Shown here piece after piece: positions 237 to 57,900 of a stretch of 64,000 nt of DNA. The position numbers and the translations under genes were made by a program. The stretch is taken from the NCBI GenBank assembly GCA_964016885.1, contig OZ024743.1, forward strand, positions 145,452,001 through 145,516,000. The letters run 5' to 3'. This DNA is from Eledone cirrhosa. Lineage: Eukaryota. Below the pieces are notes generated by a model. That model made no database searches. It saw only the letters and a list, made by a program, of their open reading frames with translations, and had not been told where the DNA came from. Position 1 is the first letter of the stretch. Every line of letters starts with the position of its first letter.

Positions 237-1017
<781 letters not shown>

Positions 1018-1029
1018 GTTATATATATA

Positions 1030-10838: not shown

Positions 10839-11028
10839 TCGGTGGATTGGCAGTATCGGTAGAGGGTCGGACGCCATGCTTTGACGCATAGAGTTACGGT
10901 CCTTGCCATTCTGAGTTCAAATCCCGCCGAGGTTAACTTTGCCTTTCATCCTTACGGGGTCGATAAAATAAAGTACCAGTAATGCACTGGGTAATTGCTG
11001 GCCTTGTGCCAAAAGTAGAACCAATTAT
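10839..11028 (+). mobile_element. SINE family B copy (partial copy follows at ~11060-11190)
   Basis: Matches the family B consensus. Confidence 0.87.
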
Positions 11029-11213
11029 CTATAGTGATCGTCTAATTAACTATTATTATTGTTCTGAGTTCAAATCCCAACGAGGTTAACATTCTCTTTC
11101 ATCCTCACGGGGTCGATAAAATAAAGCACTGGGTTTGATTTAATCGACTTTCCCTTCCCCAAAAATTGCTGGCCATATCAGAAACCATTATTCTCATTTG
11201 CGTTGGTACAATA

Positions 11214-11521: not shown

Positions 11522-11910
11522 TGTTGCTGTCAGATTCAACTCTCTCCAATTAATCAGGTTGAATCCCCAAGCGAGACCAGCCGAGTTCATGGATGTTATT
11601 CAACCATCTTGCTCGGGGTATTATATATATATATATTAAATTCTATTTGAAAACATATTATCTATATTCCTAAATATGTGAGTGAGAGAATCAGGTCCTC
11701 AAAATATATGACTGGTGACTACACCAAGAACATGTATGCTCTCAGACCAAACTGAGGCGTCTGGCTTTTGAAGCAATCACTTTTCATAACATTTGCAGTG
11801 GGGTCGCACTTCCTTCTCATCTAGTTAAAGTGGTATTTGAAGATGATAATGAGATTTGGACCGGGATATGAAGATCTTTATCACCATTTCAAGTTAATGT
11901 AGTCTCAGAT

Positions 11911-12101
11911 AATAATTGTTTCTACTTTAGGCACAAGGCCAGCAATTATCCAGTGCATTACTGGTACTTTATTTTATCTACCCCGTAAGGATGAAAGGCA
12001 AAGTCAACCTCGGCGGGATTTGAACTCATATCGTAAGGGGACATAACTATGCTGGAAAGCATGGCGTCCGACCCTCTACCGATACTGCCAATCCACCGCC
12101 C
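11911..12101 (-). mobile_element. SINE family B copy with target-site duplication
   Basis: TAGTCTCAGATAATAAT on both sides (~11900 and ~12102). Older copies at ~12770-13155, 18050-18180, 18800-19130, 19940-20130, 24780-24900 and 28580-28720. Confidence 0.88.
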
Positions 12102-19595: not shown

Positions 19596-19785
19596 GGCGG
19601 TGGATTGGCAGTATCGGTAGAGGGTCGGACGCCATGCTTTCCAGCATAGTTACGTCCCTTTACGATCTGAGTTCAAATCCCGCCGAGGTTGACTTTGCCT
19701 TTCATCCTTACGGGGTCGATAAAATAAAGTACCAGTAATGCACTGGGTAATTGCTGGCCTTGTGCCTAAAGTAGAAACAATTATT
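19596..19785 (+). mobile_element. Young full-length SINE family B copy with 19-bp TSD
   Basis: ATTATTAATGCGTTTGATT at 19575-19593 and 19780-19798. Confidence 0.92.
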
Positions 19786-20502
19786 AATGCGTTTGATTGA
19801 AGCCATTTTCCTGTCCCGTATCGGTATGTAGATATTTTGTCTTATTTCCTTGTCCAATGAGTCGAAAAGACGCATATATATATATATATATATATAGGGA
19901 GAGAGAAAGAAAGAGATGCGTGTGTGACCATGTAGAACGAATAATTGTTTCTGATTTAGGCACAAGAGCAAAAATTTTGGGAGAGGGGAATCGAATAAAT
20001 CGACCCCAGTGCGTAACTGGTGCTTTATTTTATCGACCCCGTAAGGATAAAAGGCAAAATTAACCTCAGCGGGATTTGAACTCAGAACGTAAAGGGCTGT
20101 AACTCTATGCCATAAAGCATGTTGTCCGACTAATTCTGTGTAGTCAAATACGGCGTAAGCACATGTTACTACCTAATTTTCAAATTCGCTAGCCGTTTGT
20201 GAACAAAGCCTATTTTGTGTCTCCCTATTTATATACATATATATACCTGCTATGAGTATATAGCTTCTAATTGAATGGAAGGAAGCATGGGTGGCATGTT
20301 GGTGTAATGGTAACACATTGGTCCGGCAAACCAAAGATGTCCCATGTACGTCAATACTCATCCTTTTTCCATTCAGAGGGGTTTTTTTAAATCCCAACTA
20401 ACAGACTAATTCTATGTAGTCAAATACGGCGTAAGCACATGTTACTACCTAATTTTCAAATTCGCTATCCTTTTTTAAACAAAGCCTGCTTTGTGTCTCC
20501 TC

Positions 20503-26398: not shown

Positions 26399-26420
26399 AT
26401 ATATATATATATATATATAT

Positions 26421-27596
<1,176 letters not shown>

Positions 27597-32345: not shown

Positions 32346-32389
<44 letters not shown>

Positions 32390-32601
32390 GATAATTTAAT
32401 ATATCAACTAACATAGGCGCACAGATGCACGTCCATGTCAGCAAATACACAGGTTATGTCATAGTACCTAGGTGGTTCAATGCAGGAGGGTGCAGAACAA
32501 TAATATAAAAGACGTAAAATAAGAAAATATTTTTTAAAAAATTTTTTTTTAATTTTTTTTTATTTATTTTTTTTTTTTTTTTCTTACTTACTTAAATTTT
32601 C

Positions 32602-32683
32602 ACTCCAACTAATTAGTTTCTGCAATGGGATAAAGACAGTTACATAATCCAACTGTCGAGAATTCATTGCGTCATCAGGGAGT
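32602..32683 (-). ncRNA. Type-I hammerhead ribozyme, intact core
   Basis: Reverse complement of 33431-33512. Confidence 0.85.
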
Positions 32684-33430
32684 CTATTCTCAGCTGAGCC
32701 TCCAGGCAATGCGCGGACACTGGCGGCTCATTAAAAAACAATAATTCGGTAGAAAGAACAGCTAGCGAGGACTGGATTCTATGTACTGAAATTCTCACTG
32801 CTTCCAGTCAAATGGCCGATTCTAAAGAATCAATCACGTGACATAGAGGCTAGTTAGAAGGAATGGGATGGTAAGATGACTGACGCCTACTAACACCCCC
32901 AAAAAAATTTTGAAGTGGTTTTGGCAGGTTTGCTCGACAAATCAGTGATTTGGAGATAAATATAGATAATTTAATATATCAACTAACATAGGCGCACAGA
33001 TGCACGTCCATGTCAGCAAATACACAGGTTATGTCATAGTACCTAGGTGGTTCAATGCAGGAGGGTGCAGAACAATAATATAAAAGACGTAAAATAAGAA
33101 AATATTTTTAAAAAAAATTTTTTTTTTTTTTTTTTTTTAATTTTAAAATTTTAAATTTTTAAATTTTAAATTTTAAATTTTAAATTTTAAATTTTAAATT
33201 TTAAATTTTAAATTTTAAATTTTTAAATTTTTAATCTTTAAATTTTAAATTTTAAAATTTTAAATTTAAAAAAAATTTTTTTTTTTTTTCAAATCGGCCA
33301 TTTGACTGGAAGCAGTGAGAATTTCAGTACATAGAATCCAGTCCTCGCCTAGCTGTTCTTTCTACCGAATTATTGTTTTTATATGAGCCGCCAGTGTCCG
33401 CGCATTGCCTGGAGGCTCAGCTGAGAATAG

Positions 33431-33512
33431 ACTCCCTGATGACGCAATGAATTCTCGACAGTTGGATTATGTAACTGTCTTTATCCCATTGCAGAAACTA
33501 ATTAGTTGGAGT
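33431..33512 (+). ncRNA. Type-I hammerhead ribozyme with extended stem II, intact core
   Basis: ACTCC-CTGATGA-cGCAATG aattctc GACAGTT..AACTGTC..CATTGCa-GAAA-CTAATTAG-TT-GGAGT. Confidence 0.85.
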
Positions 33513-33531
33513 GAAAATTTAAGTAAGTAAG

Positions 33532-33563
<32 letters not shown>

Positions 33564-33600
33564 TTTTAAATTTTTTTAAAAAATATTTTCTTATTTTACG

Positions 33601-33663
<63 letters not shown>

Positions 33664-33739
33664 CATGCGGTGCCCCAGCATGGCCTCAGCCGGATGGCTG
33701 AAACAGGTAAAAGAGTAAAAGAGTATATATATATATATA

Positions 33740-33953
33740 GGCGTGTGGCTGAGTGGTTAGAGAATTGGATTCGCAATCGTAAGGTTGTGAGTTCGATTCC
33801 TGGACCAGGCGATGCGTTATGTCCTTGAGCAAGGCACTTTACTTCACGTTGCTCCTTCTACCTGGAGTTGCGACCGATAGATAGTATTAGCAATTGGAAA
33901 GACCAACGGAAACATTGTTCCCTCGGTCCGATTTGACGAAAGTCGATCGTTCC
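33740..33953 (+). mobile_element. SINE family A copy in a TA tract
   Basis: Near-identical to 1108-1321. Confidence 0.85.
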
Positions 33954-34742
33954 TTATATATATATATATATATATAAATGCGCGCGTGTATAGGGAGGGG
34001 GAGAGAAAGAGAGAGTGACAGAAAGAGGTTTTGATTAATTAAAATTGTCTCCCTTGCCTTTCTTAACCAAAATTGTCCATTCAGCTAATAATTTTTTCTC
34101 TTACGGCGAGTGTAATTTTGATTAGATAAAATTACTTGGCTCCATCCGTTAATTAAGTTAGCACCAACCGTTCTATTTGTTTAATGGTTTTATTTTGAAA
34201 GCTGCAACCAATTGTAAAGAAGAGTACAAAGTAGATATCAAAATGTGGAATAAAAAGATAAAACGACATACACGTATGTATATGTCGTTGTTTACTTCAA
34301 GGCCAGCTCGATTAAAGCAGTCTCATGATCAACAGTATTTCATCCTTTTCTATTCTTTTTGCCTCTTACTGAGAACGCAAATTAATTAATATTGTAAGCA
34401 GTGTTCTAACCAAAAAGGATAGAATACCTGACTTTATGGCATGTAGTTATATCACTTTTGAGTTCTAATTCTGCAGTAGTTCATTTTGTTTCTCTTCTCT
34501 TGAGTAATATACTGTGGTAGATTCATTCGGCTATACTCATTTCCTCTTCCTTTATATGCTAACGGTGATGACATTCATAGACAACAGGTACATTTCTGAC
34601 AAGACAGAAACTTCGTTACTTGGTTGTGAAAGACTGTATACCCATGTGTACAACTGGCTGTAAGAAAGAGAAGAATACAAAGACAGATAAACTGAGTGCA
34701 TGTGTACGGGCATATGTGTGGGGATGTTTCTATACGCATGTA

Positions 34743-36237: not shown

Positions 36238-36305
<68 letters not shown>

Positions 36306-36558
36306 CGATAAATTAACGGAGGCACAGGCTCTCGCTATTCCCTGTAAATAATGTGCTCAAAGGAGAAGAAATCCTGAGCTCTTTAAAATACAATAGGTTG
36401 AAAAGGTAACACACCAGAGAGAGATATATAGTGCGCTATCAATAAAACAGGGGAAAAACCACCAGTGTATGGAATCTATAACCTATGAAAGGCAGACTAT
36501 AGACACAATAATTAAAAATATAAATTAAAGCGTAAATAAATACCTCTATAACTATATA

Positions 36559-36652
36559 ACACACGTACAAATCCAAAGATACTAATCCAAAGATATGCTT
36601 CACCAGTAATTTGTTGAAAGAAATGGGTTAGCGTCGGTTCATCAGCGTGTGT
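36559..36652 (-). ncRNA. Hammerhead, R4 minus-arm copy (GAAA>GAAG)
   Basis: Reverse complement of the R4 HHR with one core substitution. Confidence 0.7.
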
Positions 36653-37525
36653 AAGGCTATACATTTCAGACAACACTAAGAGAATTTTAAAAGTGACTGT
36701 CCCGCTACACGTGGGAGAGAGAAGTCACAGCGTGTTTAAGGACAGTGAACCAGTGGCCTCTGAGGGATGAACTGCTAGAAAAAGCAGCCCAAAGCCACTC
36801 AGAGAAGTGTGCTCAACCAAACAGAGTTAGGAAAGACTGTTATTAGGAGCGAAATATCACGATAAATTAACGGAGGCATAGGCCCTCGCTATTCTCTGTA
36901 AATAATGTGCTCAAAGGAGAAAAAATCCTGAGCTCTTTAAAATACAATAGGTTGAAAAGGTAACACACCAGAGAGAGATATACAGTGCGCTATCAATAAA
37001 ACAGGGGAGAAAAACACCAGTGTATGGAATCTATAACCTATGAAAGGCAGACTATAGACACGATAATTAAAATTATTACGATAATTTATTTACGCTTTAA
37101 TTTATATTTTTAATTATCGTGTCTATAGTCTGCCTTTCATAGGTTATAGATTCCATACACTGGTGGTTTTTTCCCTGTTTTATTGATAGCGCACTGTATA
37201 TCTCTCTCTGGTGTGTTACCTTTTCAACCTATTGTATTTTAAAGAGCTCAGGATCTCTTCTCCTTTGAGCACATTATTTACAGGGAATAGCGAGGGCCTA
37301 TGCCTCCGTTAATTTATCGTGATATTTCACTCCTAATAACAGTCTTTCCTATCTCTGTTTGGTTGAGCACACTTCTCTGAGTGGCTTTGGGCTGCCCTTT
37401 CTAGCAGTTCGTCCCTCAGAGGCCATGGTTCATTGCCCTTAAACACGCTGTGACTTCTCTCTCCCACGTGTAGCGGGACAGTCACTTTTAAAATTCTCTT
37501 AGTGTTGTCTGAAATGTATAGCCTT

Positions 37526-37619
37526 ACACACGCTGATGAACCGAAGCTAACCCATTTCTTTCAACAAATTACTTGTGAAACATATCTTTGGTTTAGTATT
37601 TTTGGATTTGTACGTGTGT
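37526..37619 (+). ncRNA. Type-I hammerhead ribozyme, R4 unit 1
   Basis: ACACACG-CTGATGA-ACC...TGT-GAAA-CATATC...GATTTG-TA-CGTGTGT. Predicted cleavage after 37612. Confidence 0.8.
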
Positions 37620-38078
37620 TATATAGTTATAGAGGTATTTATTTACGCTTTAATTTATATTTTTAATTATCGTGTCTACAGTCTGCCTTTCATGAGTTAT
37701 AGATTCCATACACTGGTGGTTTTTTCCCTGTTTTATTGATAGCGCACTGTATATCTCTCTCTGGTGTGTTACCTTTTCAACCTATTGTATTTTAAAGAGC
37801 TCAGGATTTCTTCTCCTTTGAGCACATTATTTACAGAGAATAGCGAGGGCCTATGGCTCCGTTAATTTATCGTGATATTTCGCTCCTAATAACAGTCTTT
37901 CCTATCTCTGTTTGGTTGAGCACACTTCTCTGAGTGGCTTTGGGCTGCCCTTTCTAGCAGTTCGTCCCTCAGAGGCCATGGTTCACTGCCCTTAAACACG
38001 CTGTAACTTCTCTCTCCTATGTGTAGCTGGACAGTCACTTTTAAAATTCTCTTAGTGTTGTCTGAAATGTATAGCCTT

Positions 38079-38172
38079 ACACACGCTGATGAACCGACGC
38101 TAACCCATTTCTTTCAACAAATTACTGGTGAAACATATCTTTGGTTTAGTATCTTTGGATTTGTACGTGTGT
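38079..38172 (+). ncRNA. Type-I hammerhead ribozyme, R4 unit 2 (best paired)
   Basis: 7-bp stem I ACACACG/CGTGTGT, CTGATGA, stem II ACCG/TGGT, GAAA, stem III, GUA triplet. Predicted cleavage after 38165. Confidence 0.85.
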
Positions 38173-38630
38173 TATATAGTTATAGAGGTATTTATTTACG
38201 CTTTAATTTATATTTTTAATTATCGTGTCTACAGTCTGTCTTTCATGGGTTATAGATTCCATACACTGGTGGATATTTCCCTGTTTTATTGATAGCGCAC
38301 TGTATATCTCACTGGTGTGTTACCTTTTCAACATATTGTATTTTAAAGAGCTCAGGATTTCTTCTCCTTTGAGCACATTATTTACAGAGAATAGCGAAGG
38401 CCTATGCCTCCGTTAATTTATCGTGATATTTCGCTCCTAATAACAGTCTTTCCTAACTCTGTTTGGTTGAGCACACTTCTCTGAGTGGCTTTGGGCTGCC
38501 CTTTCTAGCAGTTTGACCCTCAGAGGCCACTGGTTCACTGCCCTTAAACACGCTGTGACTTCTCTCTCCCACGTGTAGCGGGACAGTCACTTTTAAAATT
38601 CTCTTAGTGTTGTCTGAAATGTATAGCCTT

Positions 38631-38723
38631 ACACACGCTGATGAACCGAAGCTAACCCATTTCTTCAACAAATTACTTGTGAAACATATCTTTGGTTTAG
38701 TATCTTTGGATTTGTACGTGTGT
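38631..38723 (+). ncRNA. Type-I hammerhead ribozyme, R4 unit 3
   Basis: Same layout as unit 1. Predicted cleavage after 38716. Confidence 0.8.
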
Positions 38724-38888
38724 TATATAGTTATAGAGGTATTTATTTATGCTTTAATTTATATTTTTAATTATCGTGTCTACAGTCTGCCTTTCATGGG
38801 TTATAGATTCCATACACTGGTGGGTTTTTCCCCTGTTTTATTGATAGCGCACTGTATATCTCTCTCTGGTGTGTTACCTTTTCAACAT

Positions 38889-38974
<86 letters not shown>

Positions 38975-42313: not shown

Positions 42314-44200
42314 ATGTCTGTCGACCATTCCACTGAATGTGATGGCAAAACACAAAAGTTACTATCACAACCACTCCCTTCAGTGTTAGTAGCAGTATCA
42401 TCTCAAAACGACATCACTACCACTACCAACGCCACCACCACCCCCACCACAACAACTCAGAACAACAACGACAATAACACCGACAGCTTCAATGTAAACA
42501 CGGATGGCGGTGGCAACAGCAACAACAAACAAAACAACAACAACACCAACAACAACAGGAAGAATGACAACACCAACAAGAGCAACAGAGGCACCACCTT
42601 TTCTGCAGCAGCAGCAAAAACAAAGCACTTATTGAATATTGATATTAGCGATAAAGACGAACAGTTGGCCCAGGCGTGAAGGTTAATTAAACGGGAGAAG
42701 TCCTGGGCAAACCTGACCATCCTGGACGGGGCAATAGCGGCCATGCAAAGGAGGACGATGTACTTTCGATGCATTTCAGTGCACACACGCAAAGTGGAAC
42801 TTGCCAGTCAAGCAGAGGTCGAGGCTGCTTTGGAGTGCATCGGATGTGACATAGAGTATAAAGCAAGGCCCAAACAATTCGGTACCATTTCGGTACTGTT
42901 CAAAACCGAGGCCCTTGCTATTAAGCACTCGGTGACCCCCTGCAAAACGGAACACATTATCATTCACCCGTCCTACATGGGAAAAAGGACAGTAAATGTC
43001 TGCATTTCCAAGTTCCCACCAGGAATGAACATATGGTGGCTCCTGGGATGCGCAATCGAGGAGGGGACAGACACTACCCCCCCTGGATATCAAAAGGACA
43101 GAGAGAGAAGACTGGTCCGGAATGGATTTGGAGATTCTTCTCCAAATGAAACCGCAGGACATGAACAACATCCCGGATTTTGCCCGCCTGCAGGACGGGA
43201 CAACAATCCAACTAATCACTGGGGCAAGAAGGCCGCATTGCTTCGTCTGCGGGGAATCAACGCATCTGCAAGCCTTCTGCTCTCGGCGCAAAAATGCAGG
43301 GGGTCGCAAACCTTCTTTGTTGCCAACGCCAGTGTCAGCACGGAAAGCTGCACCACCCCCACCAAAAACAACACCAACAAAGACACGGACACCAACATCA
43401 AAAATAGCCGGACCACCACCAACACAGAAACCAATCCAAGGGGAAAACGAGGAAAGTTCTCCCACTCCCCCTACCCCCCAATTATACACATAGACAAAAC
43501 AATAAACGCACACACAGACACAGAGACACTCACAGCCACAGACCCTTTGTCTTCCAACAGCGAATATGAAGGAAAACCCAAAAGTGCAAAAAAAAACAGA
43601 GAAAACTCATCCCCAAAAAAGCCCCAACAAAACACAAAAACATACACAACAAAAAATACAGACACCACTAACGCAAACATTTCCCCAATAACATCAGCAC
43701 TAACAGCAACATCGACACCACCCCCACAATCCCCGAAACGCAAACAACCTAAACAAACACAAGTACAAATAAACACATAAATACCTGAAATTGCAGACAC
43801 CACACCTACAACAAACACAGACATATCCGAAACAACACCACCAAAACCATCACCACCAGTCACCAAAACGAAAACAAATAAAACCACACCAACAAAATGT
43901 TAAAAACTTCGTGCTTGTCAGAAGGGCCAACGATAAACTGATGGCCCTCTTAGCACGAAGCGAGGACATTCAAACAGAGGGGGAGATCTTTGAAATGAGC
44001 ACATTTTGCGTGCCAGAAGATTTGCTTCTGGTCCGAATGTCATTCGATTCCTTCAAAGAAATTCGGGAGAGCTTTCCTCAAGACGTGGGAACCCCGAATA
44101 TGAAACCCACATCGAGACTTTTAAAGGGGTTCCAAAAGAAACCCCACCAACCATAGAGGTCGAACCACCCGGCCTTCACAAGACCCCGGGAGGTAAGTAA
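42314..44200 (+). pseudogene. Tx1 element A ORF1 (RRM-like region, CCHC zinc knuckle, Pro/Thr-rich tail), disrupted
   Basis: FGTISVLFKTE and RPHCFVCGESTHLQAFC. Collinear with element B ORF1. Stops and frameshifts present. Confidence 0.8.
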
Positions 44201-44229
44201 ACCTTCCCTCTCTCTTTTAGCTTGACAGC

Positions 44230-47200
44230 ATGGCCATATTAAGAGTAGGAAGTTTAAATGTTCGCGGCCTGGGGTGACCCTGGAGCAGGGTCGCCTACTC
44301 AACGACCTCAGGTCGCTGGAAGTGGATGTGATTGCCGTCAGCGAGACCAGAATTTTCCGACAAGCGCGCACTAGCCTCCATTTTCGACGACTATCAGATC
44401 TTCGCATCTGTTAGCAGGCCGGGAATGGGAGGTGGGGTGGAAGTGCTGTTTAGGAAAGGACTGGATCTCGAGGTAAGGTCGATCTTCCGGGACCCGGACG
44501 GTAAGTTGGTGGTCTTGGATGTGAGCAGTAGCGAATGTGGTGCCTTTAGACTGCTGGCCGTCTACACCCCTACAGGGACCGGGCGACCGAACTTCTTTAT
44601 GCGCCTGGAGACCTTTCTGGGTACGTCTCGCCCTTTACTGTTAGCGGGGGACTGGAATGGCATCTTAGACGCACGCTGGGATTGTGTGGGAGTAGCCGAT
44701 AGGAGCCGGGGGTGTAAAAGCCTCAGGCACCTACTCAGCCAGTTCCAACTGTCTGACAGGTATCGACTAGATTTACCCAATATGCCAGTATGGACATGGA
44801 CCAACCGCATGGGGTCATCTAGATCGTATATAGACAGAATCTTCATTAGGAAAATAGATAGAAAGAGTGTAGGCTGCCCACTTTTTAAAACGGTCGCCTA
44901 TTCAGATCACAAATTTGTGATCTTTATGGTCAACCTAGATAAAACGCGTAGCTAGGGACCGAGTTACTGGAAGCTGAACATGTCATTTCCGGCACGTAAG
45001 GCTTACAGGGACCGAGTCAACAATTTAGTTAAGCAAAATTGACAGGGGGGATCATCAACAACAGATGGGGGGGGGGGGGCCTCCGAAAAGAGAGATTAGA
45101 AAATCTTCGATGGAGTTCAGCAAAGAACTAGCGTTAGAGAAAAATAGAAAGGAGGAAGAGCTGGTAGATAAGTTAGACGAGGCTATTTGTAGTGGCATTG
45201 CAACTGACGTGCTAGCGGCGAGAATGGCATTAGACCATTTCTTCAATGCGAAACACGAAGGCTGCATTGTCAGAGCTAAGGCGCGTGCGTTGAGAAACGA
45301 GGGAACCAAAGCTGTTCGATGGGCCCGCGTGGCGGAGGCGCAGCGTGGTAATAAAACCACAATTCGGTCCTTTGCGGACCGAGACGGACACGAGATAAGC
45401 GATTCCAAGCGGATTTGCTCGGTTGTTTGGGGAGAGTGGCGAGTCAGAGAGAGTAACGGATTTCAGTCCCTACATTGACAGCTTGCCAGCGCATCTCGAC
45501 AGCCGACGCTGAGCGCTGCGAAAGGCCGATTACTTCAGCCGAAATTTAGGACGCCCTTGTCGGCTGCATGAGGCGCAAGTCACCCGGTTTGGATGGTCTG
45601 CCCTACGAGCTTTACGTAAATATGCCAGACTTGTTCTCCGATCTCCTCGAAGCACTCTACTGCAACTGGCAGCAGAATGGGAGTATTCCCAGTTCTGTGA
45701 GCAGGGGAGTGGTGACGCTGATAAGGAAAGACGAGAACAAGAGGGATACATTAGATAACTTCAGGCCCATAACTCTGCTGAACACAGAGTTTAAGATTTT
45801 GGCCAGGGTGTTAGCGAAGAGGTTGGCGCTTGTCGTCGGGGATTTGGTTGAGGAGGCGCAAACTTGCGCAATCCCAACCAGGTCCATACACGACAACCTC
45901 CACCTAATAGAGAGGGTAGGGTGTAAACCTGGCTTCGGTGGGGCTCTGATCAATTTAGATCAATCGAAAGCATTCGATAGGGTCGACCATCGGTACCTGG
46001 AGGCTGTCCTCAAGGCGGCTGGCTTCGGCCCCGTCTTCAGAAGCTGGATCGCTGCAATGCACAGCGGCACCTGCTCGGTGGTCAAAATTAATGGCCACTT
46101 CTCGGAACCGTTTCAGGTCTCCCGATCGGTCCGTCAAGGGTGCCCTCTCTCCTCCCTTCTGTACGTATTGACTCTCGAGCCTTTACTGCGGAAGCTGGAG
46201 CTGTTGCAGGGCATCCCGCTCGAACCGGGACGCGGAAAAGCCGTGTCGACTTATGCGGACGACATCACCGTGATGGTGTCGGACACCTCAGAAATCGAGG
46301 TGGTCGGTACCTTATTGGAGGAATATGAAAGGTTGACGGGAGCAAAACTTAACCCGGAAAAGTCAGTAGGCTTGCAACTCGGCACCTGGAGAGGCAAGTC
46401 CATGCCGTCCAACAGCGTCGTTAGGCGCTGGACAGACCGGTAAAGTTGCTAGGGGTTTGGTTCGGGCCAGACCTCCAGGTGAATAAGTATTGGGACGAGG
46501 TGACGGGCAGGGTAGTCAGTTTCACCCAGAAATGCGCTGGGATGAAGCTATCACTGAAAGGTCGGGCGGAGGTGGCGAACGCGTACATCGCGTGCGTCTT
46601 CTACTACCGTCTAACTGTCGTCCCTTGCCCCCGTTCTCGCCTCGCCATCTTGGAGCGGCTCCTCTTCAAATTCTTGTGGAGGGGTCAGGTTCCGCTGGTG
46701 AGGCGGTCCATCTGCTGCCAGCACCCTCTACGTGGAGGGCTGGGCATGCCGTGGCTAATGATGCGCAGGCACGCGCTGAGGCTGCGGCATCTCCAGATAT
46801 TCTGCCTAAACGGTGAACAGGTGTGGTCGCCGTTTGTCAGACGGGCCTTTCCGCAGCTCGTTTCTTTGACTGAGTTGCAGTTCTGGGTCAAGAAGAGACC
46901 GAGACTGGGTGACTGGCATCTGGAATGTTGCCAGGCACTCACTGCCCTCTACCAGGCGGGAAATGCGGTCAGTGGAACTTCCACTCTCGAGTTCTATAGA
47001 GGATTAGTGGTGGGCAAGTGCGACGACGCACTCGGAGAGGCTCTGGGAATCAACGAAGTCGAACTAACCAGTCTGTACCGGAGGACTTTCGAGTCGGGGA
47101 CGATGGATAATTTCCAAAAATCCCTCGCTTGGCAGTGCTACCGGGGGGCACTGCCGGTATGAGATAAACTCTACAGGCACGGAAGTGCTGTCAGCCGGGA

Positions 47201-47618
47201 CCTGCTCGTGATGCGCGCAGAGCGACGAAACCGTTCTGCACGCACTCGTCCAGTGTCCGTGCATTACTGACTTGTGGAGTTATGTTGAACAGCTGTTGTC
47301 GCGTGTAGAACGGATCTGGCTATCGGCCGAGTCCATAGTGAAGATCGACCCGCCGCCTTCTTTTGGCCAGGAAGGGCAGGCAATTTTCCTCTGTCTGGTG
47401 GCAGTAGCGAAAGAGGTTGTATGGTGGACGAGGTTGAAAGGACTGAAGACAGACACTTTTCTCTTCGGCCAATCCCTCATCAACTTTTTCAAGTTTCACT
47501 TGGAGGGAAGGTTAGGATGGAGAGAGAAGGGCTGCCCCCCAGTACATTTGCTGAAAGGTGGGTGAATGTGGCGAGAATGGCCCGTGTGAGTAGGCCTACT
47601 CTGGTCATGCGGCTGTAG
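44230..47618 (+). pseudogene. Tx1 element A ORF2 (APE endonuclease, RT, zinc finger), disrupted
   Basis: MAILRVGSLNVRGL, SET, GDWN, SDH; KSPGLDG, FRPITLLN, LDQSKAFD, RQGCPLS, YADD, GGLGMP. Confidence 0.93.
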
Positions 47619-48127
47619 GTAAATTTGAAGGTAAATTTGAAGAGGAGAGGGGTGCCCTTCCAGGGTGCTCTCGAAGCGTCGGGTCGTTCAGGACTGGTGG
47701 GGTACCTGAGCGAACCCTAGGTGGTCATCCCCCCTATTGGGAAATTTTTTCTTGTTGTAATTTTATTGTTACTTTGTTATTGTTACTTTGTTTATTCATA
47801 TTGTTTACTCGATTTTTTTGTAAAACCCCACTGTCCCAGTCTTTTGTTTTGTCCCCTATATGTTGGCCCTTGTGGCCAATAAATGAAATCATTATTATTA
47901 TTATTATTATTATTATTGGCGACCTACGTAGTAAATCGTATCATCGTGAGCTCCGCAAAGGTTTGTTATTTCCGTTTGTTAAAAATTGCCATTTATGGAA
48001 AATTTTTATTGTTAACTATATATAAGCGCACATACATTGTTTTCCGAAAAGGACACCCAAAAAGATTGAGGCCTTGTGCCCAAAATTTAAACTTTTATGA
48101 TTATCAAAAAATTTCTTTGAAAAAGAA

Positions 48128-50134
48128 ATGGCTAATTCACCACTGCACCAAGCAGCTGAAAGCCTTTCTCACAAATTAACACCTCACACCGACACCACCA
48201 TTGTAAATGTTACTACGTCTGCCAACACACACAATTTAAGCACTAGCAATATTTTAAATTTGTCTCAGGCAGACATTCATTTCCCGCCATTACCAATGAC
48301 TGCAGGTGTTAAAGCCGCCACCACCACTACCGCCACCGCGACAACCACCACCCCCACTACCACCGCGACAACAGAAACAAAAGGAAAAAATAAATCAACT
48401 CGTGATGTCGAAATATTTTCAACCAAAATGGACTCTCCCAAACCGAACTTCACTGACGTCACCACCACCACAACTGAAACTAAAATTAATAATAACAAAA
48501 ATAACGATAGCAACAACAACAACAATGACATTAAAAAAAACCCCCTGAGTTTTGCCAGAGTAGCAAAACAGTGCGAAGCATTTACGGTAACTGAGGAGGA
48601 ATTAGAAAATGCCAAACAAATGGTAAAGAAAGATGGGTACAGGGTCAGCCTCACCCCCCACCCCCACCCACCCACCCCACCCCACCACCCACCTAATAAA
48701 ATGGAGCATCGGCGCCTATGCACCGTGTCGTATCGAACAATAAATGTAAAATCGCGCCGAGTGGAACGGGCATCCGAGTCCCAAATCCAAAAAGCTTTGG
48801 GACATGTGTGGGCAAGAAAAACCCACATCAGACGTGGGCAGAAGTATGGAACCGTGGATGTGTTCTTTGAAACACCAGAGGAGGCTAGAGAACACTCCAT
48901 GGCCCCATTAAGAAGTGACGACTTCACACTCGTCCCAAGCTATTGTGGTCAGAGACTCGTAAAGATCAGGGTGACCCACGTTCCACCGGCCATCGAAATT
49001 CCCTTGCTAATAGCGGCCGTCCTCGCCGGCATCGAAGCCAACACAAAGATAATAGCAATAGCAAAAGAAAAGCAGGAGAACTGGTCCGGATCTGGGATGG
49101 AGCTCCTGATCCAAGCGGACCAAAAAAGCATTGAGGAGATCCCAGAAGTAATAGACCTCACTGATGGCAGCCACCTCACCGTAATTGTCGAGAGCAGAAG
49201 GCCTAGGTGTGTCGTTTGTGGTGAAGGAACCCACCTAAGGGCTTTCTGCCCTTAGGCTAAAAGGTTGAGGCCACCTCTCCTACCCACCCCAGTGACACAA
49301 CCATCAACACCCTCAGTAGCAGAGATGGCAGCAACAACTGTAGCAGCAACAACAGAAGCAACTAAAACAGCAACAACCCCAGCAACAGTAGCAAAACCAA
49401 CACCACCACCACCAGCAAAACCAACACCACTACCACCCAACGCTTCAGAACTAGCACCAACGCCTACACCATCCACCACGCCACAACCAAAACTAACGCC
49501 TGTGGAGGATTTTCCATTCCCCGGCCTATCACAACTGGAGACAGATTGTGACGACGAGGAGTGGGAAACGATATCCGGAAAAAAAAAAGAAACCAAAAAA
49601 GAAAAAATTCTCTTCCTTCCCCCTCCAAAAACAAAATACAGAGGGAAACAAATAAATTAACAAACAAAAAAGTTAGGACAGATATGCCACCATCCACACC
49701 AGCATCACCAACCCCATCAACCCAAACACCAACAACATCACCATCATTAACCCCAACACCACCATCACCTACACCACAAAAGTCACCAAAATGCGAAACA
49801 GAAACGAACCCAAACAAAACAAAACAACCAAAACGATACACACTACACAGCATTAAATTTGAACAACAAGCAATTATTACACTACATCCAGCACAACACC
49901 AGCATCACAGAAAAAGACTACACAACAACCCAAAAATTCACACCACCTCCACACATACAAATCGCTCGCATCACACAGAAAACGTACATGACACTAAAAC
50001 AAAAATTCCCCAAAGACATCGGAGACTTCCGACAAGCACTCTCCAGGAGGATTTATAAGGACATCCTTCCTGAGGAGGCCACAAGCAGTGAAAAGGATGG
50101 AAAAACCGTCCTTCCCCTACGAGAAGTAAGGTAA
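48128..50134 (+). pseudogene. Tx1 element B ORF1, disrupted
   Basis: YGTVDVFFETPEEA and RPRCVVCGEGTHLRAFC. Internal stop at ~49255; Pro/Thr-rich C-terminus. Confidence 0.82.
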
Positions 50135-50168
50135 GTGGACTTTCCCATCTTTTCCACTCCTTTTCAAC

Positions 50169-53100
50169 ATGACCTAACTCAGAATAGGCAGCATAAATGC
50201 GCGTGGCTTGGGGTCGTCATGGAAGCAGGGTCACCTGCTCAACGACCTCAGGTCACTAAACATAGATGTAGTGGCCATAAGCGAGACCAGAATCTCCGAA
50301 GCACGGGCCTTCGCACCGATATTCGGCGGCTACGATGTGTACGCATCTACCAGTCGTCCGGGATCGAGGGGAGGAGTTGCTGTGCTTTTTCGGAGAGGTT
50401 TGGATCTTGCCATACGGGCCATCTTCCTGGACCCAGAAGGTAAGTTGGTGGTGCTGGACGTGACCAGCAGAGACGGGCAAGCTTTCAGGTTAGTGGCCGT
50501 CTATGCCCCGACAGGAGCAGGGCGGCCTGATTTCTTCCGGCGTCTGGAGACCTTTCTTGGAACGTCCCGCTCTTTAGTGTTAGTGGGCGACTGGAACGGG
50601 ATCTTAGATGCACGCTGGGATTGTGTGGGATTAGTGGATAGGGAAGGAGGGTGCAAGAGTCTCACCAACCTGCTCAGGCGTTTTGAACTGTCTGACAGGT
50701 ACCGAATTGATTTCTCGAATGTACCAATGTGGACTTGGACAAAGCGCATAGGGTCATCCGATCATATTTAGATAGAGTATTTTGTAGGGAAATAGATAGG
50801 TCTAGCATAGGCTGTCCACAATTCAAGATAGTCAGCTACACGGACCACAAATTCGTGATCTGTGTGCTTGACTTAGATAGGCTTCATAGACGAGGACCCG
50901 GCTACTGGAAGCTAAACGCGTCCTTACCAGCGCGCAAGGCCTACAAAGACCGGATTAGCGAACTAGTTAAACTGGCGTTGACGGGGGCCATCGTCAACAA
51001 CAAGTGGTGGTTTGCTCTGAAAAGAGCAATTAGAATAGAGTCAATTAGGTTTAGTAAGGCTTTAGCATTAGAGAAAAATAGAGCAGAGGGAGAATTAGTT
51101 AGAAAATTAGACGAGGCGCTTAGCAAAGGCATCGCGACCGACGTACTTGCGGCGAAATTGGCCCTTGACCAATTCTTCAATGCAAAGCACGAAGGCTGCG
51201 TTGTCAGAGCTAGGGGAGGGGACGAAAGCCGTTCAATGGGCCCGAGTGGCGGAGGCTCGTCGGGGCAACAAAGCCACGATCCGGTCTTTGGTAGACCACG
51301 ACGGGCGCATGCTACTCGATCCCGGGCAAATGTGTGAAGCTTTTCAGCGACACTTCGCTCAACTGTTCGGGGGCAGTGGCGGGCCGGATCGATGGATGGA
51401 CTTTAGTGTCTACCTCGACGGACTGCCGCGGCTTTCGGCCACTGAGGCGGAGTGTTGCGAAAAGCCGATAACAACCGCTGAAGTACGGGAGGCAATGACT
51501 GGCTGCACAAGGGGTAAATCGCCTGGTTTGGATGGTCTGCCCTATGAACTTTATGTACAAATGCCAGACTTGTTCGGAGCCCTCTTGGCGGACGTCTACT
51601 GCAACTGGCAACAGAACGGGAGAATTCCCAGCTATGTGAGCCGAGGAGCAGTGGCGCTGCTGAGAAAGGATCCGAACAAGGGGGATAACATAGATAATTT
51701 TAGGCCCATAACTCTGCTAAACACAGAGTTCAAGATTTTGGCCAAGGTGCTAGCAAAGAGGTTGGCGCTTGTCGTTAGTGGTCTGGTGGGAGAGGCACAG
51801 ACATGTGCTATTCCCGACAGATCCATCCACGACAACCTCCACCTCATGCGAAACATCGTAGAGAGGGTAGCTAGGGAACCTGGCACGGGTGGGTCTTTGA
51901 TCAATTTAGATCAGTCGAAAGCCTTCGATAGGGTCGACCATCGTTACCTAGCGGCAGTCCAGAGGGCGGCTGGCTTTGGGCCCGTCTTCAGAGGCTGGAT
52001 CGCTGCCATGCACAGCGACATCTGCTCTGTAGTGAGAGTGAACGATCACCTTTCGGAACCGTTCAACATCATGCGCTCGGTCCGCCAAGGATGTCCCCTC
52101 TCGTCCCTATTGTACGTATTGACTCTCGTGCCATTACTGCACAAACTGGAGACGTTGAGGGGGGTCCCGTACGAACTAGGATGCGTAAGATCCGTGTCAG
52201 CATATGCGGACGATGTCACCGTAGTGGTGTCGAACGCCAAACACATCGAGGCGATCGGCACTACACTAAGAGAATACGAAGCGGTGACAGGAGCAATGAT
52301 CAACTAGGAAAAGTCAGTGGGCCTGCAGCTCGGCACCTGGAGAGGGAGGTCCATGCCGTCCAACAGCGTCGTCGGGCGCTGGACGGACGGACCGGTTATA
52401 TTGCTAGGGGTCTGGTTCGGTCCAGACCTCCAGACGGACAAAAGCTGGGACGAGGTGACGAGCAGGGTGGCTTCTCTCACCCAGAAATGGGCCGAGAGGA
52501 AGCTATCCCTGAAAGGTCGAGCGGAGGTGGCTAACGCGTACATCGCGTCGTACCTTGTCCTAAGCCCCGCCTGACTGCGCTGGAGCGTTTGCTCTTTCGC
52601 TTCTTGTGGAAGGGACGCGCTCCGATGGTCAGGCGGTCCATCTGCTGTCAACACCCGCTACGTGGAGGGCTGGGCATGCCGTTGCTGATGATGCGCAGAC
52701 ACGCGCTCAGGCTACGACATCTCCACCTCTTCCTCGACGGTGATCAGGTGTGGTCGCCGTTTGCTAGACAGGTTTTTCCCCAGCTCGTCTCCTTGACGGA
52801 GCTGCAGTCCTGGGTCAAGCAAAGACCGAGAGGGAGCGCTTGGAGACTGGAATGTCTTCAGGCGCTCACAGCCCTCGACCAATCGGGCAATGTGATCGGT
52901 GGAAACTCCACCTTGGCGTTCTATAGGGGATTAGTGGAGGGGAAGAGCGACGACGTACTTGGAGAAACTCTAGGCGTCGACGAAAATCAACTAGCCAATC
53001 TCTTCGGAAGGACTTTCGGGCCGGGGCCTATGGATAACTTCCAGAAATCCCTGGCCTTGCAGTGCTACCGGGGAGCTTTGCCAGTTCGGGATAAACTCTA

Positions 53101-53545
53101 CAGGCATGGAGGTGCCGTCAGCCGGGCATGTCCGAGATGCGCACAGGGCGACGAAACCGTCCTGCATGCACTCGTCCAGTGTCCGAGCATTGTTGACTTG
53201 TGGGTTTATGTCGAACACCTGCTGTCACGTGTAGGACGGATCCAGCTATCAGCTGAGTCCATCGTGAGGATTGCCCCGCCCTCTTCCTTTAGCCGGGAAG
53301 GGCAGGCAGTTTTTATCTGTCTGGTGGCCATGGCGAAAGAGATAGTGTGGTGGACACGTTTGAAAGGGCTGAAGACGAGCACTTACCTCTTCGGTGATGC
53401 CCTGATTAACTTTTTCAAATTTCATTTGAAAAGGAAAATCGGGGTAGAGAGGGAAGTGCTCTCTTCCCACCATTTTGTTGAAAGATGGGTGAGAGAAGCA
53501 AGTATGGCCCGAATGAATGGGCCTTCTCTGAGTATGTGTCTGTAA
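50169..53545 (+). pseudogene. Tx1 element B ORF2 (APE, RT, CCHC), disrupted
   Basis: VVAISETR, GDWN, TDH; PGLDG, LDQSKAFD, RQGCPLS, YADD; CPRC...ETVLHALVQC. Confidence 0.93.
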
Positions 53546-53787
53546 ATTAAAGGTGGAAAACTGGGAGAGGGCATTTGCCCTGGTGGTCAGGGTCACTGTG
53601 GTCTTTTAATGGGCTTTCTCCACAAATGTCCCTCGGAAGTCTCCCCCCTATTGGGGAATTTTTCTTTGTTATTTTATTACATCCTCTGTTTTTTTACACG
53701 CAGAAATGCCCATTTGTACCGTCCTGTATTGTCCTGTACTGTCCTTAATGTCTACTTTATGTAAACCTTTGTGGTTAATAAAGAAAA

Positions 53788-53836
<49 letters not shown>

Positions 53837-53839
<3 letters not shown>

Positions 53840-55351
53840 AATAATAATGATTTCTTTATTGGCCACAAGGGCTGACATCAAGAAAAACATTACAGACGGC
53901 ACAGGACGATACGATGTAGGTTTTGTTCGTGTAAAGATTTTTATTATTTATATAAGAAAAGAAAAAGAAAATTACATAGAAATATATATATATAAACAAT
54001 AAAAATGAAAATTGGAACAATGAAAATTTCCCCAATAGGGGGAAACCTCCGAAGATTACTCGTGGCGAAAACCACACAAAAGACCACGGCTACCCTGACC
54101 ACCAGAGCAAGCGCCCTCTCTCAATTTTTCCATTTCTCAAACTACAGGCGTGTATTCAGAGCGGTCCCGTTCACTCGGACCATTCTCGCTACATTCACCC
54201 ACCTTTAACAAACTTGCTAGAAGGCAGCACTTGCCTCTCCACCCTGATTTTCCTCTTCAAGTGAAACTTGAAAAAGTTAATTAGGGATTCGCCGAAGAGG
54301 AAAGTGTCTGTCTTTAACCCTTTCAACCTTGTCCACCACACAATCTCTTTCGCCATGGCCACCAGGCAGATGAAAACCGAAAGCCCTTCCTCCTCAAAGG
54401 AAGACGGCGAGACCATCTGCACAATAGACTCAGTCGATAACCGGATCCTACACGCGACAGCAACTGTTCGACATAGCTCAGCAATGCTCGGGCACTGAAC
54501 GAGTGCGCGCATCTCGGACAGGCTCGGCTGACGGCACTTCCGTGTCTGTAGAGCTTATCTCGAACCGGCAACGCTCCTCGGTAGCACTGCCAGGCCAGGG
54601 ATTTTTGGAAGTTATCCATAGGCGCTGGGCTGAAAGTTCTCCGGAAGCGAGCAAACAGCTGATCTTCTTCGACGCCCAGGATCTCTCCGAGAACGTCGTC
54701 GTTCTCCCCCTCCACTAGTCCTCTATAGAACGCCGAGGTGGATGTTCTACCAATACTGGTGCCCAGCTGGTGAGCGCCTGGAGACATTCCACTTTCCAAG
54801 CGCTATCCCTCGGTCTTTTCCTGACCCAGGACTGCAGCTCAGTCAAGGAGACGAGCTGTGGGAAAACGTGCCTGGCGAACGGCGACCACACCTGTTCACC
54901 GTCAAGGAAGCACCAGAGATGTCGCAGCCTCAGCGCATGTTTGCGCATCATCAGCCATGGCATGCCCAGCCCTCCACGCAACGGGTGTTGACAGCAGATG
55001 GATCGTCTGACCATGGGAGCACGTCCTTTCCACAAAAAGCGGAAGAGGAGGCGCTCCATTTTGGTGAGAGTTGGGCCGGGGCAAGGGACGACGGTGAGGC
55101 GGTAGCAGATGACGGATGCGATGTACTCATTCGCCACCTCCGCCCGGCCTTTCAGGGACAGCTTCCTCTCGGCCCGTTTCTGGGTGAGGGAGGCCACCTT
55201 GCTCGTCACCTCACTCCAGTTTTTCTCCATCTGGAGGTCCGGTCCGAACCAGACCCCGAGCAATTTAACCGGTCCGTCCATCCAACGTCCCACGACGCTG
55301 TCGGACGGCATGGACTTTCCTCTCCAGGTGCCGAGCTGCAAGCCCACCGAC
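53837..55351 (-). mobile_element. Tx1-clade LINE, element C, 5'-truncated, tail-to-tail with B
   Basis: Minus-strand ORFs SVGLQLGTWRGKSMPS...FKFHLKRKIR. 3' UTR and (ATT)n tail at 53837-53848. Confidence 0.92.
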
Positions 55352-56160
55352 ATTCTATGCATGTATGCTGCAATGTACCAGGCCTCTTCTTCCGAGCGTT
55401 GGTCGAGTGCTTCCCGCGCTCGAGCAGATACCACAAGATTTTCAACCCCCAGACGGAGAGGTTCTCCTTCTCCACCGCACCTAACATGGCAGACTACATG
55501 GCCAAAACCAACGCGGCGAAAATGGGGAACCTCGACCGTCAATCGTAGGCGGGAGGGCTCCTTGCAGACAACAACCCGGCCCATGCGGCGGCCGCTACGC
55601 CCGCGGAAGACGATACAATCCAACGCCGGGCGGAAATGAGTGGCGGAGGGGACCACCGTCTCGGCAGAACAACACCCAGAGAATCGGGAGAGGGCCGTGG
55701 CAGATCAAGGGCCAGGCGTCCGAAATGAACAATATAACGACAGAACGTGCAACTGCAGAGCGGGCACACAGTGCCCTCTGCAGGAAAGATGCCTAACGAA
55801 TGGCCTGGTATATAAATGTGTGGTTAGCACGCACAATATACATTGGCGTACATCGGCGCAACATCCACGACCTTTAAATCGCGGATGTATAACCACACAA
55901 ACTCTTTCAAGGACCAGAGCAAGAGGCACTCTACCAGGCTGGCGGACCTGGTGTGGGACTTGAAAGACAAAGGGTACCCCGTATGCCCTCAACTGGAGTA
56001 TTGTTCGGCACGGGAATGCATATTCGGCTGGAAATAGAAAGTGTAGGCTATGCCTATCCGAGGCCATGGAGATTGTCAAACTGAAGGATGATGCGGTCAA
56101 CCTGAAATCAGAAATAATCATGACGTGCAGACATCAGAGAAGGTGTACACTCTCCGCATG
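55352..56160 (+). pseudogene. Naiad-type Penelope-like element 3' coding fragment (linker + GIY-YIG endonuclease), frameshifted; 3' UTR may extend to ~56730
   Basis: FFRALVECFP..YHKIFN..FSFSTAPNM; CNCR..CPL..CL..LVYKC; YIGATSTTFKSRMYNHTNSF..HSTRLADLVWDLK; CRLCLSE..KSEIIMTCRH. Confidence 0.88.
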
Positions 56161-56756: not shown

Positions 56757-56945
56757 GGTGGTGAATTGGCAGTATCGGTAGAGGGTCGGACGCCATGCTT
56801 TGCAGCATAGTTACGTCCCTTTACGGACTGAGTTCAAATCCTGCCGAGGTCAACTTTACTTTTCATCCTTACGGGGGTTGATAAAATAAAGTACCAGTAA
56901 AATGCACTGGGTAATTGGTGGCCTTGTGCCATAAGTAGAAACAGT
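56757..56945 (+). mobile_element. SINE family B copy
   Basis: Matches the family B consensus. Confidence 0.87.
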
Positions 56946-56971
56946 TATATGTATATTTTTATATATATATA

Positions 56972-57894: not shown

Positions 57895-57900
<6 letters not shown>

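Follow-up and report, generated by a model that had tools for sequence, protein, structure and literature searches.

Type I hammerhead ribozyme motifs end non-coding repeat units of 510-660 nt in a 64,000-nucleotide stretch of Eledone cirrhosa DNA (contig OZ024743.1, positions 145,452,001 to 145,516,000; the window, below). In our reading, to which we give a probability of roughly 0.55, the ribozymes of two families, called R1 and F2, are braced by a pseudoknot and dimerised by a palindromic stem III, and the units probably represent non-autonomous derivatives of Penelope-like elements. The 64-kb window is AT-rich and crowded with microsatellites, repeats resembling short interspersed nuclear elements (SINEs) and remnants of long interspersed nuclear elements (LINEs).

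Architecture of the R1 and F2 ribozymes

The R1 family is represented by two identical copies of one version, R1a, and by one copy of a second version, R1b. The parts of these ribozymes and of F2 are the following.

33384..33419, plus strand: 5' hairpin P0 of R1a, 3 nt 5' of the pseudoknot strand (minimum free energy (MFE) fold, pair probabilities near 1)
33423..33428, plus strand: 5' strand of the R1a pseudoknot, pairing with 33451-33456
33431..33512, plus strand: R1a type I hammerhead; stem I 33431-35/33508-12; core CUGAUGA 33436-42; C.A mismatch 33443/33493; stem II 33444-49/33487-92; GAAA 33494-97; palindromic stem III 33497-33506; predicted cut after 33507 (GUU)
33451..33486, plus strand: extended loop II of R1a, with the pseudoknot 3' strand 33451-56, a hairpin 33457-79 and a 7-nt linker 33480-86
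32595..32730, minus strand: second R1a copy, inverted relative to 33384-33520, ribozyme identical
884..1008, plus strand: R1b copy; P0 884-919; pseudoknot 923-929/950-956; stem I 931-35/1004-08; core CUGGUGA 936-42 (A6G); A.A mismatch 943/989; stem II 944-49/983-88; R1a palindrome retained
27101..27210, plus strand: F2 hammerhead; 5' hairpin 27101-08/27122-29; pseudoknot 27131-36/27153-58; weak stem I 27137-40/27207-10 with a G.G mismatch; core 27141-47; A.A mismatch 27148/27194; stem II 27149-52/27190-93; loop II hairpin 27159-83; linker 27184-89; palindromic stem III 27198-27205; predicted cut after 27206

Both R1a copies and F2 conform to the consensus hammerhead core (C3 U4 G5 A6 N7 G8 A9, G12 A13 A14 A15.1, U16.1 H17), from which R1b departs by its A6G change. 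Stems I, II and III of R1 have 5, 6 and 3 bp (stem III has 10 bp as a dimer), the blocks stand in C-G-S order and stem I is open; stem I of F2 has only 2 bp ahead of its G.G mismatch. R1a is the sole copy with core and stems both intact. The copies with cores at 936 (A6G) and 27141 (broken stem I) are, judging from these defects, likely to be dead relics. A search of the window for further R1 relatives with nhmmer and a covariance model returned only the three full copies and their fragments.

We see the same order of parts in R1 and F2: a hairpin, 1-3 nt, the first pseudoknot strand, 0-2 nt, stem I, CUGAUGA, one unpaired base, stem II, the second pseudoknot strand, a hairpin, a linker of 6-7 nt, stem II, A, GAAA, the palindrome, UH and stem I. 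A preliminary description of this DNA had proposed such a shared architecture, and we tested it with a covariance model that was built from R1 only, with the pseudoknot left out, and that gave 31 matches in the window at E up to 5. If the three R1 copies and a single (TA)n artefact are set aside, F2 is the best match (20.2 bits, rough E 0.003, in register), above F6 (13.9 bits) and R4 (7.9 bits), two other families of the window. This comparison bears out the proposal, and the common architecture of R1 and F2 can be regarded as supported at the level of sequence and predicted structure. The extra hairpin reported for loop II does exist, at 33457-33479 and 27159-27183, and it is stable in R1a and F2; the starts given for it, 33431 and 27137, are those of stem I.

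P0 of R1 is absent from the preliminary description. It shows the best covariation of the region, a G.A/A.G swap included, and has an invariant 5-nt bulge.

The third family that had been drawn into this architecture is R4, which forms a tandem array.

38064..38172, plus strand: R4 hammerhead, with a candidate interrupted helix of 38064-69 and 38072-75 with 38099-38102 and 38106-11

Its TAGC/GCTA complementarity is real and sits within this possible interrupted helix of 4+6 bp (-9.0 kcal/mol), which competes with a distal extension of stem I (-6.1 kcal/mol); no helix of R4 is anchored beside stems I and II (1-3 bp). Unlike R1 and F2, R4 has a stem I of 7 bp with a distal extension, a paired position 10.1-11.1 and a long stem III that is not palindromic, so that the palindrome claimed for all of them holds for R1 (33497-33506) and F2 (27198-27205) only. 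Membership of R4 in the R1/F2 architecture is doubtful, and we did not count it as a member.

F2 and R4 have 19 of 21 nt in common at 26981-27001 and 37387-37407 (and in the other R4 copies), about 140-155 nt upstream of the cores. A match of this quality was equalled in 1 of 100 shuffles, hinting at remote kinship or at a common promoter or protein site. A 13-nt word that seemed to link R1a, F2 and R4 (6 matches; chosen post hoc) was rejected: the R1a match fell, as 186 of 300 shuffles equalled it, and only the link between F2 and R4 stands.

Pseudoknot complementarity and its chance level

The pairings on which the pseudoknot proposal was built are present as described. In R1a, GAGAAT (33423-33428) is complementary to ATTCTC (33451-33456), with 6 Watson-Crick (WC) pairs and one G.U; in R1b, GAGAATT (923-929) is complementary to AATTCTC (950-956), with 7 WC pairs; and in F2, TGAGTT (27131-27136) is complementary to AACTCA (27153-27158), with 6 WC pairs, or 9 pairs counting G.U. 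All three exceed the 4 bp that PMC3088659 sets as the minimum for a helix between the peripheries of stems I and II. As free duplexes these helices are worth -6.1 to -6.8 kcal/mol.

Next, we asked how often such helices arise by chance. A relaxed type I hammerhead descriptor gave 22 matches in the window, 13 of them scoring at least 13, compared with none in 10 shuffles; the scan skipped the F2 motif because its stem I is broken. With F2 included, the window has eight hammerhead families (R1, F2, F3, F4, R4, F6, F7 and F8). For 11 copies from these eight families we recorded the longest WC helix lying at most 2 nt from stem I and at most 1 nt from stem II. Such an anchored helix of at least 6 bp is found in 3 of the 11 copies (2 of 8 families) against a background of 0.00185, and the remaining 8 copies have 0-3 bp; the empirical chance is 0.0034 for R1a, 0.0009 for R1b and 0.0016 for F2. 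With a free search of 15x15 nt, 5 of 11 copies (3 of 8 families, R4 being added) reach 6 bp against a background of 0.023. By our own arithmetic, at least two of eight families with an anchored helix would be expected with a probability of about 1e-4, and three of eight in the loose test with 7e-4. Note that both search windows were picked post hoc, when the examples were already known.

Covariation and conservation

Covariation was judged on the alignment of R1a with R1b, the two informative R1 sequences in the window, whose units are 69% identical; the copy with its core at 32678 on the minus strand equals R1a letter for letter over the ribozyme. The four R4 copies are 97% identical and therefore carry no covariation information.

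The pseudoknot had been described as covarying, and this we could not confirm: six of its seven pairs are invariant between R1a and R1b, the seventh is A.A against U-A, and none is compensatory. The covariation reported for stem II, on the other hand, is there, with two of six pairs changed on both sides. In P0 (33384-33419 against 884-919) 3 of 10 pairs are compensatory and two more show one-sided changes. We take the compensatory changes in stem II and P0 to show that the region is under selection as RNA. For the whole R1 structure the observed covariation score was reached by 8 of 500 shuffles, and pairing is 96% compared with 32-48% in slid controls; as only two sequences enter, one of which also supplied the structure, these statistics are no more than suggestive.

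The pseudoknot columns are conserved: 13 of 14 are identical between R1a and R1b, compared with 25 of 39 unpaired columns outside the core. A coding constraint behind this invariance can be ruled out, as the reading frame of the loop II strand is not the same in R1a and R1b. Despite the failed covariation we regard the pseudoknot helix itself as plausible. Between the R1 and F2 units there is no local similarity above shuffles (z 0.0 and -0.3); since homology is undetectable, the differing pseudoknot sequences of the two families cannot be counted as covariation, and the two pseudoknots may be separate cases or relatives too diverged to align. When RNAalifold was run on the complete R1 unit, 15 pairs were compensatory on the sense strand compared with 13 on the antisense strand, a result that lends no support to structure outside the ribozyme region.

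Predicted folding and a proposed mechanism

All four helices of R1a reach a probability near 1 in its nested ensemble and both pseudoknot strands are unpaired there (0.76-1.0), so the pseudoknot helix has no competitor. In the MFE structure of the R1a monomer, which lies 2.9 kcal/mol below the active monomer fold, the 3' half of stem III is base-paired to the core. Two R1a copies cofold at -55.2 kcal/mol, compared with -45.6 kcal/mol for two monomers, and the predicted topology is a double hammerhead with an intermolecular stem III of 10 bp and swapped stem I strands.

On this basis the following mechanism can be proposed. In R1 and F2 the helix of 6-7 bp between the 5' flank and loop II would keep stems I and II next to each other. 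Through the palindromic stem III, two copies would be able to cut as a swapped dimer, a lone R1a copy being predicted to be off. As the pseudoknot joins two segments of one molecule, it would survive the strand swap; being intrastrand, it would pre-organise the catalytic half, in place of the usual contact that loop II makes with stem I, and it would make up for the 10.1-11.1 mismatch. The hairpin of loop II would stack onto the end of the pseudoknot helix, which the linker of 6-7 nt would bridge. Cleavage would set the unit length of the RNA, to be copied in trans by a Penelope-type reverse transcriptase.

A broader form of this proposal is one that we hold tentatively and with considerable doubt. 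It says that R1 and F2 represent a widespread, hitherto unsearched Penelope-type architecture of a 5' hairpin, a pseudoknot of 6-7 bp, a purine mismatch at 10.1-11.1, a hairpin-bearing loop II of about 35 nt and a palindrome, in which the pseudoknot by itself would pre-fold the catalytic strand and which would be silent as a monomer, fast as a swapped dimer at physiological Mg2+ and possibly able to cut in trans.

Relation to known hammerheads

Pseudoknots between stems I and II have been found in about 40% of hammerhead representatives, in all three types (Perreault et al. 2011, PMC3088659), and a type I pseudoknot hammerhead, exemplified from a mouse gut metagenome, has been used in cells (PMC10761166). 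The type II pseudoknot tested in PMC3088659 has 6 bp, was validated by mutation and forms without the substrate strand. Compared by eye, the oligonucleotide used there and R1/F2 have a like order: pseudoknot strand, 2 nt, stem I, core, stem II, 1 nt, pseudoknot strand. R1 and F2 resemble the PMC3088659 class in that a WC helix of at least 4 bp connects the strand immediately before stem I and CUGAUGA with the strand immediately after stem II. They differ from it in their loop II of 33-37 nt with its own hairpin, in their palindromic stem III and in a stem II that equals or exceeds stem I in length.

As a standard, Penelope-type hammerheads have a palindromic stem III, a short stem I and an additional base after A9 and cleave as dimers (PMC4209133; PMC6765202), and R1 and F2 carry the palindrome, the short stem I and the extra nucleotide; R4 has no palindrome. 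The minimal and palindromic hammerheads of Cervera and de la Pena 2014 (PMC4209133) are like R1 and F2 in being of type I, with a stem I of 4-5 bp, the extra nucleotide after A9, a palindromic stem III, dimer-type cleavage (predicted here) and oppositely oriented copies 100-700 bp apart, and like R1 in having G-C as the first canonical pair of stem II. Unlike R1 and F2, Penelope-type hammerheads have been described as lacking recognisable loop-loop contacts (PMC7761336), and the text of PMC4209133 mentions no extra A before GAAA, no long loop II and no pseudoknot.

Non-coding head-to-tail units with one type I hammerhead each, such as those described here, are known from the metazoan retrozymes without long terminal repeats (non-LTR retrozymes; Cervera and de la Pena 2020, PMC7229834; Li et al. 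2026, bioRxiv 10.64898/2026.07.22.740005). Their consensus lengths are 51-972 bp, and they co-occur with, and derive from, the pseudo-LTRs carried by Penelope-like elements (same sources). The bioRxiv preprint defines a non-LTR retrozyme by two or more consecutive tandem units, each with its complete type I hammerhead; R4, with three such units, fits this definition, and R1 and F2, which do not, match the preprint's "monomer" class. In the retrozyme comparison R4 is thus a true tandem, whereas R1 and F2 are monomers or partial tandems with inversions only; furthermore, the ribozymes of canonical retrozymes have non-Watson-Crick loop contacts, unlike R1 and F2.

Two further systems are less close. 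The crystallised "PK hammerhead" of type SGC (Zhan et al. 2024, PMC11300833; Eckert et al. 2023, PMC10085705) combines a hammerhead core with a pseudoknot helix of 6 bp, but is non-circularly permuted and has the pseudoknot in place of helix II, whereas R1, F2 and R4 keep the type I C-G-S order. The hammerheads of toad and termite RNAs resembling hepatitis delta virus and of Drosophila pseudoobscura (PMC7936874) are, unlike R1 and F2, of type III, with an extra hairpin capping helix I and an internal loop of helix I touching a small loop II.

In summary, the pseudoknot and the palindromic dimerising stem III have each been published, and only their combination appears to be undescribed in the text searched. 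The "distinct subtype" of the preliminary description was therefore an overstatement, since its ingredients, type I pseudoknots included, are known. A pseudoknot and a palindrome together with a long loop II that bears a hairpin and a mismatch at 10.1-11.1 were nowhere found in the literature text that was searched, a scope to which figures, the type I alignments of PMC3088659 and the supplements of PMC4209133 do not belong. The exact R1 pattern had no match in GTDB genomes, and a blastn search of phages with the R1a ribozyme gave none. A generic type I pattern run on 1/64 of the GTDB parts gave 120 loci, of which one passes a minimal stem filter, without a pseudoknot, and is uninformative.

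Host elements

The insertions that carry the three families are the following.

32380..33610: R1a insertion; a ~575-nt repeat, present in about 1.3 units on the minus strand (33144-32380), and an inverted 5'-truncated copy (33284-33610), with (TA)n at both outer ends (self-BLAST, nhmmer)
431..1018, plus strand: R1b insertion; inverted 5' piece at 431-486, followed by a single ~515-nt unit, 69% identical to R1a, that starts 2 nt before the equivalent of the cleavage site (487) and ends about 15 nt past the ribozyme cut site in (TA)n
26414..27502: F2 insertion; ~660-nt unit, partial tandem (26572-26839 equals 27233-27502), inverted piece 26414-26580, (TA)n flanks
36300..38895: R4 array; 553-nt tandem units and an inverted 5' part, bounded by (TA)n runs

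In R1, F2 and R4 alike, the units stand head to tail or in partial tandem, their 5' end carries a truncated piece in inverted orientation, and the whole is set in (TA)n; Penelope-like elements have been described with this arrangement (PMC8557442). Relative to the cut-site equivalent, the forward copies start about 2 nt before it in R1b, 20-25 nt after it in R4 and about 27 nt after it in F2. These starts near the cut site, three cases only, may mark the 5' end of the RNA template. The forward copies start at 487 (R1b), about 37080 (R4) and 26572 (F2), directly after the inverted piece.

Remnants of Penelope-type coding sequence are found elsewhere in the window. A remnant of 122 aa at 57922-58287 resembles GIY-YIG domains (ESM Atlas 0.95) and has 1466 relatives at E up to 0.001 in a full protein search; a word-index protein search, in contrast, found nothing, and Pfam called no domain in the remnant nor in eight of its matches. 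In longer relatives a cysteine-rich linker precedes the GIY-YIG motif, an arrangement that we take to be of the Neptune type. Using tblastn with the 150 best Penelope-type protein matches, we obtained remnants at 3167-3274, 6254-6829, 55387-56161 and 57949-58299, and none within R1, F2 or R4. These units are thus non-coding and best read as retrozyme-type derivatives of pseudo-LTRs (bioRxiv 10.64898/2026.07.22.740005).

The remnants at 3167-3274, 6254-6829 and 55387-56161 code for Penelope-type reverse transcriptase, linker and GIY-YIG parts. A 5'-truncated Penelope-type element lies at 57897-60088 (plus strand) between (TA)n runs and consists of the C-terminal GIY-YIG remnant, about 1.7 kb of AT-rich sequence, a hammerhead (F3b, 59976-60014) and a brief tail; a relative with 70% identity, F3a, is at 27703 on the minus strand. 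Words resembling splice donors stand +14 to +22 nt past the cut sites of R1, F2 and R4. Penelope elements have introns near the pseudo-LTR. We rejected the splice-donor reading of these words, whose scores are equalled in 8-29% of random windows.

Points against the reading and alternative explanations

Several observations weigh against pseudoknot-braced, dimerising ribozymes in Penelope-like derivatives, beginning with the lack of compensatory changes in the pseudoknot described above. Position 10.1-11.1 is unpaired (C.A in R1a, A.A in R1b and F2), and such a mismatch is a rejection criterion in PMC3088659. Stem II (1+6) is longer than stem I (5), the opposite of the validated type II example of the same study (stem I 7, stem II 1). 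The loop II hairpin is not preserved in R1b, where it is degenerate (two of seven pairs broken, one gapped), an alternative helix is predicted over the R1b core, and in F2 a predicted helix of 8 bp (27137-44/27156-63, about 0.98 for most pairs) masks the core. On each strand of an R1 or F2 insertion there is a single complete ribozyme, which precludes a cis dimer at these loci. Penelope-type hammerheads are often slow or protein-dependent (PMC4209133; PMC11167929), and of 9 Xenopus retrozymes 8 failed to cleave in vitro (bioRxiv 10.64898/2026.07.22.740005). Finally, the analysis brought no autonomous partner to light.

Potentially, the pseudoknot could make the ribozyme active as a monomer, the palindrome being an inherited Penelope-type feature and dimerisation optional. 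We think this unlikely. The R1 palindrome is able to close a stem III of 3 bp with a loop of 4 nt, the free-duplex energy of the pseudoknot is larger than the 2.9 kcal/mol that separate the MFE structure from the active monomer, the single ribozyme per strand would agree with it, and most invertebrate type I hammerheads cleave as monomers according to PMC7761336. However, the pseudoknot fits the inactive monomer fold equally well and hence need not shift the balance, the isolated stem III hairpin has no predicted stability, and the full palindrome of 8-10 nt, which exceeds what a monomer needs, recurs in six of the eight families. Somewhat harder to accept, in our view, is that the helix forms but is no catalytic brace, acting instead as a folding guard or as a docking site for a protein of the element, in motifs that barely cleave themselves. 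An invariant, non-covarying sequence suggests sequence-specific recognition, and the mismatch at 10.1-11.1 in all copies and the predicted core-hiding helices in all three would agree with poor cleavage, as would the Penelope hammerhead of Anolis, which needs protein to cleave and without which insertion in vitro still takes place (PMC11167929). On the other hand, R1 and F2 reach the same geometry with different sequences, this geometry is like that of a contact that raises rates 20- to 100-fold (PMC3088659), and the alternative core helices vary from copy to copy and are not conserved.

There is maybe no pseudoknot at all, and the complementarity is a coincidence or a short inverted repeat at the level of DNA. 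The zero covariation and the post hoc choice of the search window speak for this, as do the 2.3% of random pairs that give 6 bp in the free 15x15 search and the abundance of inverted repeats in this A/T-rich sequence. Two families without detectable homology, however, share the anchored position of the helix as well as its flanking hairpin and linker, and both strands are conserved at a unit identity of 69%, which makes coincidence very improbable to us.

Other hammerheads and repeats in the window

The cores of the eight families lie at the following positions.

R1: 936 (plus), 33436 (plus), 32678 (minus)
F2: 27141 (plus)
F3: 27703 (minus; F3a), 59976 (plus; F3b)
F4: 24124; 23991 (minus)
R4: 37533, 38086 and 38638 (three tandem copies), and an inverted fourth copy with GAAG
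F6: 13703
F7: 20696
F8: 22152

Stem III is palindromic in six of the eight. Rfam gave no hammerhead family among its 117 matches to the whole window (E<=1), nor among the 4 matches to 33380-33530 at E<=10; as the more ordinary motif at 59976 was also missed, this silence says little about R1 and F2. A purine-rich unpaired opposition (A.A, C.A or A.G) between core and stem II is seen at 13703, 20696, 936, 27141 and 33436, that is, in four families, two of them without a pseudoknot. At 63593-63745 (plus strand) there are hammerhead-like ends (a stem I of 5 bp, GAAA, a palindromic stem III and a cut triplet), with a degenerate 5' core and then about 120 nt before a small hairpin that precedes GAAA; this may be a decayed or an interrupted hammerhead.

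Among the other repeats, 42700-55400 holds two or three decayed LINE copies, tandem and inverted, with a mutual identity of about 74% and endonuclease, RVT_1 and zf-RVT domains. One SINE-like family of about 250 nt occurs at 1092-1345, 4255-4500 and 33724-33976, another of about 190 nt at 4630-4822, 7300-7700, 10840-11030, 11910-12100, 19596-19788 and 56757-56949. The heads of both look tRNA-derived, yet ARAGORN calls no tRNA in them.

A permuted hammerhead candidate

We also scanned the window for permuted hammerheads, and found that 60160-60222 has all hammerhead blocks in S-G-C order, which is a non-circular permutation.

60160-60164/60185-60189, plus strand: stem III (5 bp); predicted cut after 60165
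60166-60171/60203-60208, plus strand: stem I (6 bp)
60179-60181/60217-60219, plus strand: stem II (3 bp)
60182-60185 and 60209-60215, plus strand: intact GAAA and CUGAAGA

The candidate sits in an insertion of about 130 nt (about 60112-60245) with (TA)n on either side. It is a single copy and offers no covariation. An equal match was found in none of 200 shuffles and a looser one in 2 of 200; a relaxed scan of the window added two low-complexity matches with mutated cores, so that 60160-60222 is the only credible S-G-C match, in an element distinct from R1, F2 and R4, which are all C-G-S. Rfam gave no hammerhead match to it. The text of PMC10085705 places type SGC in no genome of a known organism, and the candidate is possibly more novel than the R1/F2 pseudoknot and could matter more.

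Compared by eye, the 3' ends of the elements Naiad_Obim, Naiad_Ovul and Naiad_Esco (supplement of PMC8557442) likewise show S-G-C order, with intact stems I (6 bp) and III (5-7 bp) and a weak or absent stem II; two of them are flagged "HHR_half_core" there. Naiads, which are said to lack canonical hammerheads, may thus carry permuted ones, and a link of our candidate to Naiads is putative. The "HHR_half_core" of Naiads has core halves 35-50 nt apart (PMC8557442), and those of R1 and F2 are 47-51 nt apart. We rejected the R1/F2 architecture as its explanation for the three cephalopod Naiads, whose blocks have the opposite order; two of the eight half-core entries are covered by this.

Implications

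Penelope-type hammerheads have been described as minimal, without tertiary contacts, slow in vitro and of unclear role (PMC7761336, PMC4209133, PMC11167929). A variant with its brace between stems I and II within a single strand offers a direct test of how a tertiary contact can coexist with dimer-dependent cleavage, and of whether cleavage is important for these elements. Because each ingredient is known, the effect on the field would be modest. The design of R1 and F2 does point to a blind spot, as current descriptors with a short loop II and a paired 10.1-11.1 would miss it. If the architecture is indeed widespread, the numbers of ribozymes in invertebrates would be underestimated, and some Penelope-type hammerheads would not be slow.

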